The notes beneath the pieces were generated by a model. It did not search any database and was not told where the DNA came from. It saw only the letters and a list, made by a program, of their open reading frames with translations. Position numbers and translations under genes: made by a program. From the IMG/VR virus record IMGVR_UViG_3300042934_000306: a stretch of 17,540 bases of DNA; one strand, given 5' to 3'. Positions 1-16,985 of the stretch are shown piece by piece; position 1 is the first letter of the stretch, and each line of letters starts with the position of its first letter. This DNA comes from a virus. Taxonomy: Duplodnaviria > Heunggongvirae > Uroviricota > Caudoviricetes.

Positions 1-612
1 ATGCCGGTGCTTAAACCGTTTATGGACATGGTTAAAAAGTACGGTACGCCATACATCGGCGGCGCGTTCTGTACTGACAGGCTAAAACTCACCCCTTTCA
101 CGAAATATTGCGATGACCATTTTGGGCGAGGGAATTACATCACATGGCTGGGTATTCGTGCGGACGAACCCCGTAGGCTGAAACCGAAACCGGGCGTCCG
201 GTATCTTGCCGAGCTGTCAGATTTTGATAAGTCGGATGTTATCCGGTGGTGGCGAAAACAACCTTTTGATTTGCAAATCCCGGAGCACCTCGGGAACTGT
301 GTTTTTTGCATCAAAAAGTCAACGCAAAAGCTGGGGCTTGCATGTAAAGACGAACCTGGTCTGATGCGAATTTTTAATGAGCTGGTTACAGGCAAACACG
401 TCAGGGATGGTCATCGCAGAACAGGTAAAGACGTTATGTACCGTGGTCACCTGACGCTTGACGGGATTGCCAGAATGTATGCCGACAGCGACTACAGAAA
501 TTTGTATCAGGCGATGGTGCAGGCCAAGCGGTTTGATACTGGTTCGTGTTCCGAATCATGTGAAATCTGGGGTGACCAATTGGAGTTGAGATTCGAAGAG
601 GTAGTGGCATGA
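1..612 (+). CDS. PAPS reductase-like (phosphoadenosine phosphosulfate reductase family) protein, 5'-truncated by window edge
   Basis: ORF open from base 1; GIRADEP segment resembles the G-L-R-R-E-Q-S motif of CysH-type PAPS reductases, plus CxxC; stop TGA 610..612 overlaps next start (ATGA). Family call from memory. Confidence 0.55.
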   Translation: MPVLKPFMDMVKKYGTPYIGGAFCTDRLKLTPFTKYCDDHFGRGNYITWLGIRADEPRRLKPKPGVRYLAELSDFDKSDVIRWWRKQPFDLQIPEHLGNCVFCIKKSTQKLGLACKDEPGLMRIFNELVTGKHVRDGHRRTGKDVMYRGHLTLDGIARMYADSDYRNLYQAMVQAKRFDTGSCSESCEIWGDQLELRFEEVVA

Positions 613-1088
613 CAAACAAAATTGACTATCAAAAGCTTCGTGAAATTGCTGAAAAAACAAAAATTGCTGGTGAAGCGCCTGTAATGCCTTTCGATCAGCG
701 AATTAATGCGCTTAACGATTTTATGAAGCACTTTTCGCCAGATATCGCGTTGGCATTATTGGATGAAGTTAAACGCCTGGAAGACACAAATATCGATGCT
801 ATGTGCCGAATTGCAGAGGTGGAGGCGCGGGAAATAAAACCAGCCAAAGGCGAAGTTCTTGTCGTTGTCTCTGGTTTTACTGGTTGCGGGAAAAGCGCCA
901 TTGCCGGGGAAATAGAAATTGCGATGAAAGCTATTGGCGTGCCGGTTCAATGGACTAATGGCGATGCAGAAAAGCATATGACCGGCGCTGACTGGCTGAC
1001 AGCGATTGAGATGTACAAACCAACTGTGCGCATCGTGGAAGTTAATGTGCCACGCGCCGCTGGCATTCGCATCAAAGAAGGTGAGTAA
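609..1088 (+). CDS. hypothetical phage protein (159 aa), possibly Ead/Ea22-like
   Basis: ATG at 609 overlaps upstream stop; uninterrupted 159-codon ORF; no motif recognised with certainty. Confidence 0.5.
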   Translation: MTNKIDYQKLREIAEKTKIAGEAPVMPFDQRINALNDFMKHFSPDIALALLDEVKRLEDTNIDAMCRIAEVEAREIKPAKGEVLVVVSGFTGCGKSAIAGEIEIAMKAIGVPVQWTNGDAEKHMTGADWLTAIEMYKPTVRIVEVNVPRAAGIRIKEGE

Positions 1089-1264
1089 TGCGTGTGGCAT
1101 GTATCGGCTTGTTACCGTACCCGACTCGTTTTTGGGCTTCTGCGCTAATTGCAAAGCCACATGTCCTGATGGCTGACAACATCATCCCGGCACCAAAGCG
1201 CCGCCATACCGGTATTGCAGCGGCACGACGAGCAGCAAAGAGACGCAGGAGAGCAAAGCGATGA
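1088..1264 (+). CDS. small basic protein (58 aa), Arg/Lys-rich C-terminus
   Basis: ATG at 1088 overlaps upstream TAA (TAATG); translated by hand as MRVACIGLLPYPTRFW...RRAAKRRRRAKR; stop TGA overlaps next ATG at 1261. Not in the supplied track (under 60 aa). Confidence 0.25.
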   Translation: MRVACIGLLPYPTRFWASALIAKPHVLMADNIIPAPKRRHTGIAAARRAAKRRRRAKR

Positions 1265-1437
1265 AAAACCGTAAGGCAAAACGACTTTTTTTACAGCGAC
1301 CTGTGCGTGTGGTGGAGCTGGTTATTAGCAACCATAAGATAGCGGTACTCCATCCATTTGGTCAGGTGGCTTTTGCCGCAAAGCGTAAGCCTACTGCGTC
1401 ACAGAACAGGCGGAAGAAAGGGTACGCAGTAAGATGA
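1261..1437 (+). CDS. small basic protein (58 aa), MKNRKAK N-terminus
   Basis: Hand-translated MKNRKAKRLFLQRPVRVVELVISNHKIAVLHPFGQVAFAAKRKPTASQNRRKKGYAVR; ATGA overlap at both ends; paralogous ends with the 1434..1622 ORF. Confidence 0.3.
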   Translation: MKNRKAKRLFLQRPVRVVELVISNHKIAVLHPFGQVAFAAKRKPTASQNRRKKGYAVR

Positions 1438-1622
1438 AAAACCGTAAAGCAAAGATTCTGTTAGTTCGTAGAAACGCTCCTGGCGTCTGGCAGTGGGTGA
1501 GACTCAGCAACCGACGGATGGGGTTGATGAAATATTACGGGATGATGGATTGTGGTTTTTGCAAAAAGCCCAGCGCGGCGCAAAACCGCTGGAGAAACCA
1601 TTTGCGCACTAAAGGAGAGTGA
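1434..1622 (+). CDS. small basic protein (62 aa), MKNRKAK N-terminus
   Basis: Track ORF MKNRKAKILLVRR...AQNRWRNHLRTKGE; its 3' end carries AAGGAGAG, the SD for the next gene. Confidence 0.35.
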   Translation: MKNRKAKILLVRRNAPGVWQWVRLSNRRMGLMKYYGMMDCGFCKKPSAAQNRWRNHLRTKGE

Positions 1623-1623
1623 T

Positions 1624-1833
1624 ATGGCTATTGCCGCAAGTTACACCATGCATCTCTATTGTGACTGCCGCCAGTGTACGGAAGGTGTATATCCAGTGCC
1701 AGACTTCGGTGAGTATATCGGTACGTCATGGTCTGGTTGTGCAAAAGAGGCCCGTAAAGACGGGTGGCGAATAAGTAAAGACAAAACACGTGCTTTTGCG
1801 CCCGGGCATAAAGTTTTGAGGATTAACAAATGA
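1624..1833 (+). CDS. small Cys-rich protein (69 aa), possible zinc-binding
   Basis: ATG 1624 preceded by AAGGAGAG at 1611..1618; MAIAASYTMHLYCDCRQCTEG...; stop overlaps DUF551 start (ATGA). Confidence 0.5.
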   Translation: MAIAASYTMHLYCDCRQCTEGVYPVPDFGEYIGTSWSGCAKEARKDGWRISKDKTRAFAPGHKVLRINK

Positions 1834-2435
1834 CCACTATTACCAGAGAACAGGCACAGAAAATTATTGAAGCAGCCGATGAGGTTATTAGTGCGCTGGC
1901 CGGAACTAATGAGGATGTTCACCCTGGTAGCGATAACATGCTACGTCTGTGGGATGACCTGAATGACCGTCACGCGCCCCCTGAAGTTGTGCGTGAGTTG
2001 GCACGAATTGTGCTGGCATCGCTGGAAGCAGAGCCTGTAAGCCAAACTTACAACTTGCCAGAATTAATCGAAGGCATGGAAGTTTCCATTGATGTAAGCA
2101 CTTGTGATGCTGATTTAGGTAATCGCTATTTCGGCACCGTCACCGAGGCGTTAGAACTTGATACAGCCAAGAATGGTTACATCCTCCTGGTTCAGGACGC
2201 AGAGCCAAACTTCGATGTAAATGGCAACTCTCCGGTAACTCCGGATGGTTGGATAAGCTGTAGTGAGCGAATGCCCCCTCAAGATGATTGGATTTTAATT
2301 TATTCAAAGCACGGCGAGTATATGGCAGGACAGGTACAAGGGGAATACGTGGAGTTGAGCGACGGCACTTTATCGTGGTTAGGGAACGCCTTGTTCTGGA
2401 TGCCGCTACCAGAACCGCCGCAGGAGGCGAAATGA
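1830..2435 (+). CDS. DUF551-like phage protein
   Basis: C-terminal W-rich segment (DGWISCSERMPPQDDWILIY...) typical of DUF551 proteins in lambdoid early regions; assignment from memory. Confidence 0.65.
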   Translation: MTTITREQAQKIIEAADEVISALAGTNEDVHPGSDNMLRLWDDLNDRHAPPEVVRELARIVLASLEAEPVSQTYNLPELIEGMEVSIDVSTCDADLGNRYFGTVTEALELDTAKNGYILLVQDAEPNFDVNGNSPVTPDGWISCSERMPPQDDWILIYSKHGEYMAGQVQGEYVELSDGTLSWLGNALFWMPLPEPPQEAK

Positions 2436-2692
2436 TGGATGTAAAAGAGAAGGTTTTGCAGGTGATGCGTTCCCGGGCTGCCCTGCAAGATAAAGCTCTC
2501 GGCGGGGAATATCCATTCAGGATGGCAACCTGGAATCTGCGGTTGGCAATGGAGAAGGCATTTCCTGATGAAGAATGGCGTTCGGCAGATTTGCGCAAAA
2601 TTCTTATGGAGCTGGCTAAAGACGGAACAGTATCCAAAGATACCCATGCCAGCCGGATTGGTCAGGCGGTATGGAGACTGGAGGTGAGGTAA
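2432..2692 (+). CDS. hypothetical protein (about 86 aa)
   Basis: ATGATG at 2432/2435 after GGAGG at 2423..2427, overlapping the upstream TGA; the track ORF 2288..2692 start is in-frame but overlaps the upstream gene. Confidence 0.5.
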   Translation: MMDVKEKVLQVMRSRAALQDKALGGEYPFRMATWNLRLAMEKAFPDEEWRSADLRKILMELAKDGTVSKDTHASRIGQAVWRLEVR

Positions 2693-2973
2693 TGGCTAAC
2701 CTGCAACTTGCCGTTAAAGGTGAATACTTCGATGCCATGATTCGCGGGGAGAAAACGGAAGAGTATCGCCTGTGTAATGACTACTGGAATAAGCGCCTCG
2801 TTAACCGTAAGTATTACCGCCTGATTATCACAAAGGGATATCCGAAGCGCAAAGACTTCAGTCGCAGAATTGACGTCCCGTATAACGGATATGAAATAAA
2901 AACAATCACACATCCACACTTCGGTGATAAACCGGTAAAGGTGTTCGCGATAAAAGTGAAGATTAATAGCTAA
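2692..2973 (+). CDS. ASCH-domain-like protein (93 aa)
   Basis: ATG 2692 after GGAGGTGAGG, TAATG overlap with upstream stop; N-terminus MANLQLAVKGEYFDAMIRGEKTEEYR resembles the ASCH/PUA-like signature. Confidence 0.45.
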   Translation: MANLQLAVKGEYFDAMIRGEKTEEYRLCNDYWNKRLVNRKYYRLIITKGYPKRKDFSRRIDVPYNGYEIKTITHPHFGDKPVKVFAIKVKINS

Positions 2974-2996
2974 ATTTCAATTAACACGGAGTAATT

Positions 2997-3290
2997 ATGT
3001 GGCGCGGTAATAATCATGGCGGAAGTCAGATGATACTTACCGAATATACGTTCGACCACAAAACCAATAAATCACGTTCAGTATATTTGCTTCGGCACAA
3101 TAGCCGCGTAAGAAATACCGTTCTGGAGCAAAATCTGACCGTTGAAATGGATAATTTGGGAAACTTCAAGCCAACAATATCGCTTGATGATTTTCCGTGT
3201 GGTTTAAGCGAAAGAGAAGCAATGCTGAAATTAGCAGAATGGTTACAAAGATTGAGCATTGCTATTGAAGATAACTGGATTCAACCATAA
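2997..3290 (+). CDS. hypothetical protein (97 aa)
   Basis: ORF with GGAG five nt upstream of ATG 2997. Confidence 0.45.
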   Translation: MWRGNNHGGSQMILTEYTFDHKTNKSRSVYLLRHNSRVRNTVLEQNLTVEMDNLGNFKPTISLDDFPCGLSEREAMLKLAEWLQRLSIAIEDNWIQP

Positions 3291-3314
3291 TGAAAAACAG
3301 AAAGAAAGATTGCT

Positions 3315-3524
3315 ATGGCAACATTTAGTAAATTCGCAGTAATTATTATTTTATTAATTCCCCTCACTGTTACAGCAGGGGAACAGCAACATTGCACAAA
3401 AGAGAATGAACACCCTTTCATCGTTATTCAATGCGATGACGGAACGGTGACTGTGGTTAATGTAAGAAATGACCGTGTAGCTGTTTGCCGTAAAGGCGAA
3501 CCATGCAAGGAAATAAAACTATGA
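3315..3524 (+). CDS. small secreted or periplasmic protein (69 aa), signal-peptide-like N-terminus, 4 Cys
   Basis: MATFSKFAVIIILLIPLTVTAGEQQ... hydrophobic leader followed by a Cys-containing mature part; stop overlaps next start (ATGA). Confidence 0.5.
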   Translation: MATFSKFAVIIILLIPLTVTAGEQQHCTKENEHPFIVIQCDDGTVTVVNVRNDRVAVCRKGEPCKEIKL

Positions 3525-4270
3525 CAAGAATCACTAAAGAGCGTATTTCAGATATTATTTCCCGTATCGAAATGTATGGTCACGGTGCTGGATACACAGC
3601 AGATGAAGTATTGGAGCTTGCCAAAATAGCTTTAGCGCCTTGCAAGGATGGTAAAGCTATGACACTGATTGACTTGTTAGTGAAGGAATTATCTAAGGGG
3701 CGTGGATGGCCTGATGGAAAAGATTTTTGCCATCTATCCATTACGATGCCAGGTAGTAGTCGCGCTACGGTTCTTTTTGGTACGCGCCATAAAAATTACC
3801 AATCATCAAAGAATTATTCCATTGATGGCATTATTTGCGATATCAGTGACCTTGATCGCAGTGCGTTTACATCGGTTGTCACTCGTGAACAGTATGAAGC
3901 AGCTCGCATAGCGTCTCAGAAAGTTAAGTCTGAAAGTAAGGCTTACAAGTTAGATTTTGAGCAATGGCTGGAACAGCAACGCGGGAAAATCGATGTGGAC
4001 TGCGGTTGTGTGTCTGCGGAAACATTCATGCACTGGTTGCGGGTAGCTTATGAGGCTGGGAACCATCCGGATTTTCCGGATAGTTCCCAACAAGCGCCCA
4101 GGAAAAGCGTAAAAACCACTCTGGAAAGAGGCTATCTTGAGGCCGCATTAAAGATTAAGCCGGGCCATACACTAGGCGTCATTGATGCCATGTTGGTTCA
4201 TGAAATGGCGAAGGCTTTATTGCCGCTGGTGGCTGATAAACATGAGGCGGACCATGCCAACGAAAGCTGA
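3521..4270 (+). CDS. hypothetical phage protein (249 aa)
   Basis: ATG 3521 with AGGA upstream and ATGA coupling to the preceding ORF; the alternative in-frame ATG at 3503 would overlap the previous gene by 22 nt. Confidence 0.6.
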   Translation: MTRITKERISDIISRIEMYGHGAGYTADEVLELAKIALAPCKDGKAMTLIDLLVKELSKGRGWPDGKDFCHLSITMPGSSRATVLFGTRHKNYQSSKNYSIDGIICDISDLDRSAFTSVVTREQYEAARIASQKVKSESKAYKLDFEQWLEQQRGKIDVDCGCVSAETFMHWLRVAYEAGNHPDFPDSSQQAPRKSVKTTLERGYLEAALKIKPGHTLGVIDAMLVHEMAKALLPLVADKHEADHANES

Positions 4271-15880: not shown

Positions 15881-16455
15881 CAGAAAGCCTCCCAGTCAGT
15901 CGCGATTATATCCACACCAGTTGCAAACCAGTCTGTCTGCGCCTGTAAATCACCATTCATCATTACCAGGCGAGGCATCACCATCACATCGCACCCTTCC
16001 ACAATATCGAATGCCTCTTCCGGCAAGAATTCGAAGAGCTTTTCTTTGCTGCCAATGCTGCCACGGAACATCGATATATAGCTCCCTTTAGGCCATGATG
16101 TCCGCCGGGCATCAAGCCCTTTCATCATCCAGTAAAAAGCCGAGGAAAAAGGGATATTCTTTTTGCCAATGATTACATTATTCGCTTCTGTGTACTTCAG
16201 GAACTTAACTAACCTTACCATTGACTCGGATAACGCAACGTATGGCTCATGATTGATTGCTGACACGCTTACACCGTGCAATCCAACGCTTACCACTGTC
16301 ATATCGCCGCTCTGTGCGGTTTCGATATTGACGCCTTTGCGAACTAATGAGGCGTAAAGTTCCTCTCGCTTTTGGGTCCAGCGTTCCCGCTTCCCTATGA
16401 AGTCACTCAAAATGAGATCTTCTTCTGCATATGCGTTATCGTTCGCCATTAACAT
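15880..16455 (-). CDS. hypothetical protein (191 aa) with DUF2829/Tad2-like C-terminal signature
   Basis: GGAGA SD 5 nt before ATG 16455; C-terminal AFYWMMKGLDARRTSWPKG ... DWFATGVDIIATDWEAF parallels the C-terminus of the 216-aa protein at 7583..8233. Confidence 0.5.
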   Translation of the reverse strand: MLMANDNAYAEEDLILSDFIGKRERWTQKREELYASLVRKGVNIETAQSGDMTVVSVGLHGVSVSAINHEPYVALSESMVRLVKFLKYTEANNVIIGKKNIPFSSAFYWMMKGLDARRTSWPKGSYISMFRGSIGSKEKLFEFLPEEAFDIVEGCDVMVMPRLVMMNGDLQAQTDWFATGVDIIATDWEAF

Positions 16456-16909: not shown

Positions 16910-16985
16910 TGGTGGCCCCTACCGGACTTGAACCGGTGACCGTGCGATTATGAGTCGCCAGCTCTAACCACTGAGCTAAAGGGCC
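16910..16985 (-). tRNA. tRNA with CAU anticodon, closest to enterobacterial tRNA-Ile2 (lysidine-dependent); would also score as tRNA-Met
   Basis: Minus-strand sequence GGCCCTTTAGCTCAGTGGTTAGAGCTGGCGACTCATAATCGCACGGTCACCGGTTCAAGTCCGGTAGGGGCCACCA folds by hand into a canonical cloverleaf with encoded CCA. Confidence 0.85.

Follow-up and report, generated by a model that had tools for sequence, protein, structure and literature searches.

The small proteins of the exo-xis regions of lambda and Stx phages are expressed early and polycistronically, and their roles, whether regulatory or accessory, are non-essential (PMC8614690). [quoted passage not shown] The module was analysed in a window of 17 540 nucleotides, the whole stretch of a caudoviricete virus record (IMGVR_UViG_3300042934_000306). 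ORF1-3 belong to the same Stx neighbourhood, downstream of ea22, as the exo-xis proteins Orf60a, Orf61, Orf63, Orf73, Ea8.5 and Ea22, but have no sequence relationship to them and are far more basic, without a confident fold.

The closest described relatives are genes already catalogued in phages. PHROG 1380 (933W L0068, VT2-Sa p08, phiV10 p50 and p51) matches both ORF2 and ORF3 at full length, and PHROG 13831 (phiV10 p49 and the novel EDL933 gene X015, which is the 933W allele) matches ORF1 at full length. In these phage loci the neighbours are those of the window, with Ead/Ea22 upstream and PHROG 926 and DUF551 genes downstream, and the existing annotation of phiV10 already remarks on the resemblance of p50 to p51. 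The homology search in lambdoid early regions proposed in the preliminary description placed the family in both exo-xis/ea and nin-like accessory regions. The operon that holds ORF1-3 is an accessory one, carried by a P1/D6-like phage-plasmid, and lambdoid phages, Stx phages among them, share the module in their exo-xis/ea and nin-like regions; relative to the lambdoid prophage loci, the window differs in carrying a two-copy E-A arrangement in a phage-plasmid, and otherwise in nothing essential. Matches to positions 1000-1700 of the window are present in 1080 of 5426 complete E. coli genomes and 201 phage records, Stx phages included. A contig scan of genomes added no more than a Citrobacter braakii locus and one 228-nt contig that bears an Acinetobacter label and is probably contamination. 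Literature searches with the peptide motif, PHROG numbers, accessions and 933W locus tags gave no matches, nor did the Sakai small-gene supplement. ORF1-3 are best described as a widespread, catalogued and uncharacterized accessory module from Stx and lambdoid phages.

All three ORFs lie on the plus strand: ORF1 at 1088-1264 (58 aa, pI 12.0, net charge +14; WP_001261533.1), ORF2 at 1261-1437 (58 aa, pI 12.0, net charge +15) and ORF3 at 1434-1622 (62 aa, pI 11.5, net charge +14; WP_085948948.1). The ORF list and the sequence confirm the originally described chain of 58, 58 and 62 aa, with starts at 1088, 1261 and 1434 (173 + 173 nt) and a step of one frame back per ORF. The TAA stop of the upstream gene, which encodes a 159-aa Ead/Ea22-like protein (609-1088, plus strand; Pfam PF13935, 29 bits against a cutoff of 27; WP_000182372.1 in pE2863-2), shares one base with the ORF1 start (TAATG), and ATGA overlaps join ORF1 to ORF2 (1261-1264) and ORF2 to ORF3 (1434-1437). 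Downstream follow, as is usual for the module, the gene of a 69-aa Cys-rich protein of PHROG 926 (1624-1833, plus strand) and, with a further ATGA overlap, that of a DUF551 protein (1830-2435). Since 4-nt and 1-nt start/stop overlaps are typical of the entire operon (including those at 609 and 1830), this style of overlap is not peculiar to the chain. Equally, the 173-nt spacing from ORF1 to ORF2 is a coincidence that merely reflects the 58 codons of ORF1, the same length as ORF2; ORF1 orthologues in other loci span 51-61 aa. These are three real, separate genes for tiny, highly positively charged proteins, in an arrangement that is ordinary for mosaic phage regions.

The chain had been read as a tandem family of three, which holds for ORF2 and ORF3 as a paralogous pair and fails for ORF1. 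The shared MKNRKAK start and QNR-basic end reflect a similarity beyond chance (BLASTP E=1e-9; 37% identity, 19/52 identical), and both proteins belong to PHROG 1380, ORF3 covering profile positions 1-62 of 62 (E=5e-40) and ORF2 positions 1-60 (E=6.5e-23). In each, KP[ST]A[AS]QNR precedes a basic tail, and the three family motifs are present, namely an N-terminal M[KN]NRKA[KR], a central [ILV]SN[RH][RK] and, close to the C-terminus, K.[ST]A[AS]QNR; the invariant columns are M1, K2, N3, R4, K5, A6, L9, S25, N26, Q50, N51 and R52. ORF2 is a divergent 'upstream-position' member with the centre ISNHK and the tail QNRRKKGYAVR, and ORF3 a typical 'terminal-position' member of allele type A with the tail QNRWRNHLRTKGE. 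Searched with the profile, 1.84 billion representative proteins yielded just 47 clusters, all of enterobacterial-type small proteins except three repetitive false positives of 264-832 aa (P0080, P0085 and P0089), and no distant annotated relative lending a function was found among them. ORF1 was considered as a highly divergent third copy and rejected, as hhalign gave a probability of 0.4% over one aligned column and the PHROGs differ; the chain is one gene plus a pair.

ORF1 matches PHROG 13831 over positions 1-58 of 58 (E=8.6e-42). Its N-terminal half is variable and probably disordered, and its C-terminal Arg-rich helix (TGIAAARRAAKRRRRAKR) is invariant, the tail TGIAAARRAAK+RRR being retained in 25 homologues. 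The AF2 model places a helix at residues 40-57 (pLDDT ~80), with the remainder low, and PredictProtein assigns X015 55% helix, 69% disorder and no TM segments. A role for ORF1 as a small membrane protein was rejected on this last result and on its hydrophobic stretches, which are short and interrupted by Pro, Arg or Lys. A PHROG 1380 gene follows ORF1 directly, with an ATGA overlap, in 77 of 78 informative loci, although these are mostly close relatives from two overlapping locus sets and the counts are therefore not independent. Frameshifted ORF1 copies are frequent in databases (e.g. P0159 on 95 contigs), which argues that the gene is dispensable.

The products (pI about 12, net charge +14 or +15) are predicted to be largely helical or disordered. 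Searches of Pfam, NCBIfam and PADLOC with all three ORFs and all members of the family alignments yielded only sporadic, sub-threshold compositional matches (zf-C2H2_jaz, Myb, Adeno_PV), and PDB sequence searches with both family profiles were empty or gave one match at E=2.2. A C2H2 zinc finger (PF12171, zf-C2H2_jaz) in ORF3 was rejected, the match scoring 12.5 bits, well below the 22.6 required (E=0.17), and appearing in one of 20 members; C40 and C43 of ORF3 are replaced in ORF2 and other alleles. AF2 models of ORF3 (20-sequence alignment) and ORF1 (25 sequences) are helical at low confidence (pLDDT 66 and 64, pTM 0.23 and 0.27, respectively), and Foldseek comparison of both with PDB and BFVD found no matches, so that a fold is not assignable. 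Across the whole window, Rfam detected only a distant tRNA, and no RNA families in the region. Arginine-rich-motif (ARM) peptides, among them lambda N, P22 N and HK022 Nun, are short, mostly disordered chains that work through an Arg-rich alpha-helix. For the ORF1 tail AARRAAKRRRRAKR, AF2 likewise predicts a helix, which is a resemblance only; the helix is N-terminal in ARM peptides but C-terminal in ORF1, which does not occupy the N position next to pL. Assessed as lambda N-type ARM proteins, ORF1-3 gave no Pfam match for any member and no N-family homology.

Composition and the predicted Arg-rich helix of ORF1 make nucleic acid binding by the products a tentative suggestion of rather low probability. 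The proteins would be non-essential early accessory factors with affinity for a polyanion, RNA or DNA being the likeliest, and the conserved termini may provide the binding, with specificity tuned by the variable centre. A possible, though rather unlikely, alternative is that they are real proteins acting through protein-protein contacts in anti-defence, host takeover or lysis-lysogeny modulation. Consistent with this, exo-xis genes in such accessory regions affect lysogeny (PMC8614690), Abc2/anti-RecBCD lies upstream in locus L088, a Tad2 anti-Thoeris gene is found within the same window, and genes engaged in an arms race typically show presence/absence polymorphism and shuffled alleles. However, PADLOC-DB yields no defence or anti-defence family at E<=1, either with ORF1-3 or with the neighbouring genes, and the extreme positive charge of ORF1-3 is more typical of polyanion binders.

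Judged by substitution patterns, each ORF is under purifying selection in its own frame. In-frame dN/dS is 0.31 for ORF1 (1.0-1.3 in its shifted frames), 0.34 for ORF2 and 0.36 for ORF3, against about 1.0-1.4 in most shifted frames, with the exception of the ORF2 +1 frame (0.57), and third-position changes are in excess. The expectation that the protein centre evolves much faster than the ends was borne out (dN/dS 0.45-0.57 in the centre against 0.10-0.29 at the termini). 'Diversifying' in the sense of positive selection was not demonstrated; values of ~1.1-1.5 arise only in close pairs with 8-9 versus 2 substitutions; the central variation looks like relaxed constraint combined with recombination of discrete alleles. 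PHROG 1380 genes occur singly or in the combinatorial pairs E-A (as in the window), E-B, E-C, E-D, C-D and A-D. A comparison of 88 upstream with 172 terminal copies showed that the last ~10 codons are set by position, because they double as the initiation region for the gene that follows. Taken together, the alleles depict a family whose ends are conserved, whose centres can be swapped and whose 3' tail depends on the gene that follows. Both the shuffling of alleles and the duplication or loss of ORF2 may result from homologous recombination at two conserved segments, MKNRKAK at the 5' end and KPSAAQNR at the 3' end.

The conserved 'termini' might instead be DNA- or RNA-level elements (recombination linkers or initiation regions), with protein similarity as a by-product. 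Alleles A-D of ORF3 are near-identical in DNA across ~30 nt at the start and ~55 nt at the end, while their centres diverge with indels; the last ~10 codons change as a unit according to which gene follows and carry that gene's Shine-Dalgarno (SD) sequence; and short conserved boundary sequences are a recognized model for phage mosaicism (PMC3233612). The boundary 'linkers' of mosaic phages are likewise associated with near-identical allele ends, clean one-gene indels and combinatorial pairs (PMC3233612), but in the window the conserved segments are intra-coding and also under protein-level selection. The N-terminal 10 codons have pS 0.29, pN 0.04 and dN/dS 0.10, and the C-terminal block dN/dS 0.13-0.29. 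The motifs also survive synonymous and two-base codon changes, with the Arg of QNR encoded by CGC, AGG or AGA, and are retained in different DNA in the Citrobacter homologue, and divergent representatives keep SAAQNRWKNH followed by unrelated residues. Conservation of the motifs at the protein level therefore confines a real DNA-level role to the extreme 3' tail and leaves the motifs unexplained by it, which renders this account of the termini improbable.

ORF2 forms a presence/absence unit of exactly 173 nt; roughly half of the related loci carry it, and the ORFs are intact with or without it. Two copies of a 21-nt direct repeat on the plus strand, one spanning the ORF2 start (1260-1280; GATGAAAAACCGTAAGGCAAA) and the other the ORF3 start (1433-1453), are 20/21 identical (95%) at a spacing of 173 and constitute the sole surviving DNA-level similarity between the two genes; recombination between them would remove or add precisely the ORF2 unit. 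It is improbable that ORF2 is a decaying or spurious duplicate that leaves only ORF1 and ORF3 functional. This could be suspected from its absence from so many loci, from the lack of any PGAP annotation at 1265-1433 in the RefSeq record of pE2863-2, and from the gene's centre, where the frame signal is at its weakest (on few sequences, dN/dS is 0.57 in frame versus 0.32 in the +1 frame; close pairs give 1.3-1.5, on tiny counts). Nevertheless, ORF2 has an overall dN/dS well below one (as above) and a central value of 0.27-0.37 in distant pairs, possesses the best SD of the three ORFs, and is invariably the upstream gene, with a tail of its own. Its orthologues are 81-100% identical and all 58-59 aa, and the gene stays intact at this length in all full-length variants, down to the ~50% identical orthologue at the same position in locus L091; in L091 and L092 the same three-gene chain recurs with 173/173 spacing, a near-identical ORF1 and divergent genes at the ORF2 and ORF3 positions. 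It is also annotated elsewhere (phiV10 p50; P0044). ORF2 is a real gene that RefSeq missed in the matching plasmid.

Translation signals are distributed across the chain, each ORF having its own ATG. An SD-like AGAAGG (1076-1081, plus strand) lies 6 nt before the ORF1 ATG, and a stronger AGGAGA (1247-1252, plus strand), within the 3' end of ORF1, lies 8 nt before that of ORF2; the junction with this AGGAGA also precedes ORF3 in loci without ORF2. The SD of ORF3 is poor and distant (AGAAAG, 13 nt before the ATG), and that of the PHROG 926 gene (AGGAGA, 1613-1618, plus strand) sits within the last ORF3 codons. No promoter or terminator consensus was found on the plus strand between 300 and 4100. 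ORF1-3 are probably three independent, translationally coupled cistrons in a long promoter-less stretch of the accessory operon. ORF3 may be translated mainly by termination-reinitiation at its ATGA overlap, and the amounts of all three products may be linked because the overlaps would make ribosomes terminate and then restart. A programmed -1 ribosomal frameshift was rejected, since no slippery heptamer precedes the stops (1240-1264 and 1415-1437 were read) and the homologues are stand-alone proteins.

That ORF1-3 are instead one longer gene broken by two frameshifts, as might be read from the step of one frame back at every ORF, a few fusion or frameshift database proteins (P0001, P0163 and P0171) and the longer profiles PHROG 12350 and PHROG 9263 that match ORF3 as a part, is highly improbable given the separate ATGs, two of them with strong SDs, the dN/dS of around 0.3 in each frame separately, the mostly stand-alone full-length family matches of 55-112 aa among the 1.84 billion representatives, the occurrence of the unrelated ORF1 and ORF2/3 families apart from one another, and the clean presence or absence of ORF2 among intact ORFs. 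The 933W ORF1 orthologue X015 is moreover translated alone in EDL933, with ribosome footprints at RPKM 35, coverage 0.84 and RCV 0.32 (PMC4765031); together with own-frame purifying selection, these footprints refute the pseudogene reading and uphold the earlier view of separate small genes.

It is likely, with good though incomplete confidence, that the core of this account is correct: three coupled coding genes of accessory status, of which ORF2 and ORF3 are paralogues, ORF1 is unrelated and ORF2 is optional. What is new here is the reality of ORF2, the nearly obligate coupling of ORF1 with a PHROG 1380 gene and the build of conserved ends with swappable centres. By itself the module reveals no new mechanism, but it is a defined target for functional screens. 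It is carried by clinically important Stx phages and offers a compact set of small proteins in which to study coupled translation together with mosaic recombination. A bolder and improbable proposal is that the module supplies stoichiometrically co-translated, Arg-rich and largely disordered peptides that target host or phage RNA, the ribosome or RNA polymerase, in which the termini bind and recombining central cassettes (alleles A-E, single or in ordered pairs) set specificity. If true, Stx phages and P1-like phage-plasmids would carry a new class of small modular proteins that serve as regulators or in counter-defence.

Three consecutive small basic genes occupy positions 1088-1622 on the plus strand of the window: ORF1 (1088-1264, 58 aa), ORF2 (1261-1437, 58 aa) and ORF3 (1434-1622, 62 aa). 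This layout, as given in the preliminary description, is reproduced by both the sequence and a mechanical ORF list; the step from ATG to ATG is 173 nt in both cases, placing each ORF one frame back from its predecessor. The ORF1/ORF2 and ORF2/ORF3 junctions are ATGA overlaps, and the TAA stop of the upstream gene (609-1088) overlaps the ORF1 ATG by a single base. Since 4-nt and 1-nt overlaps also occur at 609 and 1830, this arrangement characterises the operon as a whole and is not specific to the chain. All three genes had been proposed to form one tandem family, which holds for ORF2 and ORF3 only. These share an MKNRKAK N-terminus and a KP[ST]A[AS]QNR motif that leads into a basic tail (19/52 identities, BLASTP E=1e-9), and both match phrog_1380 (E=6.5e-23 and E=5e-40, respectively). 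In contrast, ORF1 matches phrog_13831 over its full length (E=8.6e-42), and profile-profile comparison of its alignment with that of ORF2/3 detects no homology (probability 0.4%). The chain therefore comprises a single PHROG 13831 gene and, behind it, two paralogous PHROG 1380 genes. ORF1 orthologues vary from 51 to 61 aa, and hence the 173-nt step from ORF1 to ORF2 reflects equal length only. At the DNA level, the likeness of ORF2 and ORF3 is reduced to a 21-nt direct repeat across their starts (1260-1280 and 1433-1453, 20/21).

The chain genes belong to catalogued families, both listed in PHROGs as of unknown function. Pfam, NCBIfam and PADLOC scans of the proteins yield no significant match. 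When 1.84 billion representative proteins were searched by profile, only 47 clusters matched; three are repetitive false positives, and the others comprise small proteins of the same kind, for the most part 40-112 aa long and including some fragments. PHROG 1380 motifs recur across clusters at the N-terminus (M[KN]NRKA[KR]), in the middle ([ILV]SN[RH][RK]) and near the C-terminus (K.[ST]A[AS]QNR(W)KNH). Annotated homologues are all termed 'hypothetical protein', the nearest named examples being 933W L0068, VT2-Sa p08, phiV10 p49-p51 and EDL933 X015. MKNRKAK-type proteins do occur in lambdoid early regions, where a homology search had been suggested: in 933W the segment is flanked by ea22-like L0069 and xis within the early-left operon, with L0068 the ORF3 counterpart. 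In phiV10, p49 corresponds to ORF1 and is followed by p50 and p51, whose mutual resemblance was already remarked by the depositor in the record annotation.

All three genes show the signature of coding sequence. By the Nei-Gojobori method, applied to every family member drawn from 97 related loci, dN/dS in the annotated frame is 0.31 for the ORF1 family, 0.34 for ORF2-type and 0.36 for ORF3-type genes, against 1.01 and 1.34, 0.57 and 1.42, and 1.11 and 1.10 in the respective shifted frames; third-position changes are over-represented in all three sets. Codons within the motifs vary synonymously: ORF3-type genes use CGC for the QNR arginine, whereas ORF2-type genes use AGG and one divergent ORF2-type gene uses AGA. 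A Citrobacter homologue keeps the motifs with different underlying DNA. The PHROG 1380 motifs are therefore selected as protein. ORF2 retains a length of 58-59 aa in every full-length variant, down to ~50% identity. In published ribosome footprint data for E. coli O157:H7 EDL933, the 933W prophage contains a 'novel gene', X015, which the authors classed as 'real' (transcript RPKM 109, footprint RPKM 35, coverage 0.84, ribosomal coverage value 0.32; PMC4765031); X015 encodes MRVACIGLLPYPTRFWASALIAKNIIPTPKRRHTGIAAARRAAKRCRRAKR and represents the ORF1 allele of 933W, providing for this gene alone of the three the translation signal sought. Together, the in-frame dN/dS, intact ORF2 length, protein-level motifs and X015 footprints refute the idea that the region is a single frameshifted pseudogene. 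Programmed frameshifting is also unlikely, as no slippery heptamer precedes the stop of ORF1 or ORF2.

Translation would be most simply accounted for by termination-reinitiation coupling at the ATGA overlaps, through which ORF1 and the PHROG 1380 protein(s) would be produced in linked amounts, possibly acting together. From ~300 to 4100 the plus strand carries no predicted sigma-70-like promoter or intrinsic terminator. ORF1 has the Shine-Dalgarno sequence AGAAGG 6 nt before its ATG, ORF2 has AGGAGA at 8 nt, within the ORF1 tail, and ORF3 is preceded only by AGAAAG at 13 nt; AGGAGA for the following gene lies within the ORF3 tail.

Positions 1000-1700 are 100% identical to E. coli plasmid pE2863-2, which matches the whole window at 98% coverage and 99.3% identity. 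Base-for-base identity ends at 2275, with differences from 2276 inside the DUF551 gene (201 aa in the window, 208 aa in the plasmid), indicating that the window derives from a close relative and not from the pE2863-2 record itself. Gene content (humD-like S24 peptidase, phd/doc, dut, tyrosine recombinase, pacA/pacB, Tad2 and one tRNA) and matches to phage D6 and P1-like phages identify the window as a P1/D6-like phage-plasmid. Mosaic DNA makes up the 700 nt around the chain, and this segment is present in 201 phage records (mainly Stx, phiV10-like, RCS47 and P1-like phages) and in 1080/5426 complete E. coli genomes. Elsewhere in the window, a minus-strand ORF (15883-16455) is 100% identical to a pE2863-2 protein annotated as Thoeris anti-defence Tad2 family. 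The minus-strand tRNA (16910-16985, CAT anticodon) is called tRNA-Met by ARAGORN (Rfam 64.7 bits); the related plasmid record annotates tRNA-Ile near this position, probably the same tRNA, lysidine modification making CAT an Ile anticodon.

RefSeq annotation of pE2863-2 includes ORF1 (WP_001261533.1) and ORF3 (WP_085948948.1), leaving the ORF2 body (1265-1433) unannotated by PGAP despite its conservation, purifying selection and the best Shine-Dalgarno sequence of the three; this gap probably affects many records. The 30 nt preceding the first MKNRKAK ATG are the same ORF1 tail whether an ORF2-type or ORF3-type gene follows, and ORF2 is thus an exact 173-nt insertion/deletion bounded by the 21-nt repeat. 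A 228-nt contig labelled Acinetobacter idrijaensis (JQCU01000388.1; locus L085) carries ORF2 and the ORF3 start with the same sequence as E. coli, most likely through contamination of that assembly.

Two overlapping sets of loci, one retrieved by the PHROG 1380 profile and one by ORF1, consist mostly of close relatives, and their counts describe patterns, not independent events. In the profile-retrieved set, PHROG 1380 genes occur as one copy in 44 loci, two tandem copies in 41 and three in one, the last a segmental duplication and not a three-gene array. Among ORF1-recovered loci, a PHROG 1380 gene follows at an ATGA overlap in 77/78 informative cases (35 ORF2-type and 42 ORF3-type, one of the latter beginning MMKNRKAK). 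The converse fails, with PHROG 1380 genes also standing alone or following an Ead/Ea22-like or DUF7446 gene, in both early-left and nin-like contexts. Their centres fall into discrete alleles, A-D plus the ORF2-type E, observed in the pairs E-A, E-B, E-C, E-D, C-D and A-D, with at most two genes per array and E always upstream. The C-terminal tail is set by position, independent of central allele: 88/88 upstream copies, including those with ORF3-like centres, end ...RR(K/E)KGYAVR, and 167/172 terminal copies end QNRW(K/R)NH..., the other five carrying either point changes in that tail or the Citrobacter version. In the window (1400-1437, 1590-1622) and at related loci L003 and L143, the last ~10 residues of PHROG 1380 proteins read ...RRKKGYAVR if a family gene is next and ...W(K/R)NHLRTKGE if not. 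The tail-coding DNA also constitutes the initiation region of the next gene.

The family had further been described as diversifying, and the centre indeed evolves several-fold faster than the ends (dN/dS 0.45-0.57, compared with 0.10-0.11 for the first 8-10 codons and 0.13-0.29 for the C-terminal block). However, positive selection is not demonstrated: centre dN/dS is 0.25-0.49 in distant pairs and exceeds 1 solely in close pairs with 8-9 non-synonymous and 2 synonymous changes, variation compatible with relaxed constraint and allele shuffling. ORF3 alleles share almost identical DNA over the first ~30 nt and last ~55 nt with divergent centres, A and B differing there via compensating indels. 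Such a pattern would be expected under the 'boundary sequence' model of homologous recombination at conserved gene ends (PMC3233612), with the difference that the PHROG 1380 ends are additionally protein motifs. Hybrid proteins (P0033, P0001; locus L095, 2691-2918) either fuse the N-terminal 32 residues of ORF3 to a DUF4014 protein or place an Ead/Ea22 N-terminus ahead of complete ORF3, and mark recombination junctions within or at the edge of the ORF3-type gene. In the rare ORF3 variants P0038 and P0042, the central ~25 residues are read in an alternative frame (...GETQQPTDGV..., mapping to window 1493-1612), returning in frame before KPSAAQNR; the centre appears to tolerate frame changes. 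Frameshifted ORF1 versions lacking the Arg-rich tail (P0156, P0159, P0163, P0171; one on 95 contigs) suggest that ORF1 is often inactivated in resident prophages.

The products are strongly basic (pI 12.0, 12.0 and 11.5, net charge +14, +15 and +14 for ORF1, ORF2 and ORF3). AlphaFold2 yields helical, low-confidence models (pLDDT 66 for ORF3, 64 for ORF1), the only reasonably confident element being an Arg-rich C-terminal helix of ORF1 (residues 40-57); published PredictProtein values for X015 (55% helix, 69% disordered, no TM segment) agree with the ORF1 model. Foldseek finds no match to the models in PDB or BFVD, nor do profiles of the chain families match any PDB sequence. The proteins resemble lambda N-type ARM peptides in composition only; both homology and the position of the helix speak against placing them in that group. 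Most plausibly, these would be non-essential early accessory proteins binding a polyanion, most likely RNA or DNA. Nucleic-acid binding, as originally proposed, is a tentative assignment, less likely than not, and a role directed at proteins (anti-defence, host takeover or lysis-lysogeny modulation) is about as likely, other exo-xis proteins being known to modulate lysis-lysogeny (PMC8614690).

Neighbouring genes offer further observations. The Ead/Ea22-like protein (609-1088) contains a Walker-A-like GFTGCGKS and has weak, sub-threshold APS kinase/adenylyl-sulfate kinase matches (Pfam E=0.018, NCBIfam E=0.001); its gene directly follows a PAPS-reductase-family gene (1-612), and the two may form a functional pairing. 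The PHROG 926 gene (1624-1833, 69 aa), which adjoins the module nearly always, encodes a CDC-x2-C...C cysteine pattern (MHLYCDCRQCTEG...SGC) and possibly a small zinc-binding protein.

The chain described initially is real, with ORF2 and ORF3 paralogous and ORF1 unrelated, and is of an ordinary kind: small, translationally coupled, recombining accessory genes of a mosaic phage region. Three details are modestly interesting, namely the conserved yet unannotated ORF2, the near-obligate pairing of ORF1 with a PHROG 1380 gene and the C-terminal tail dictated by position.
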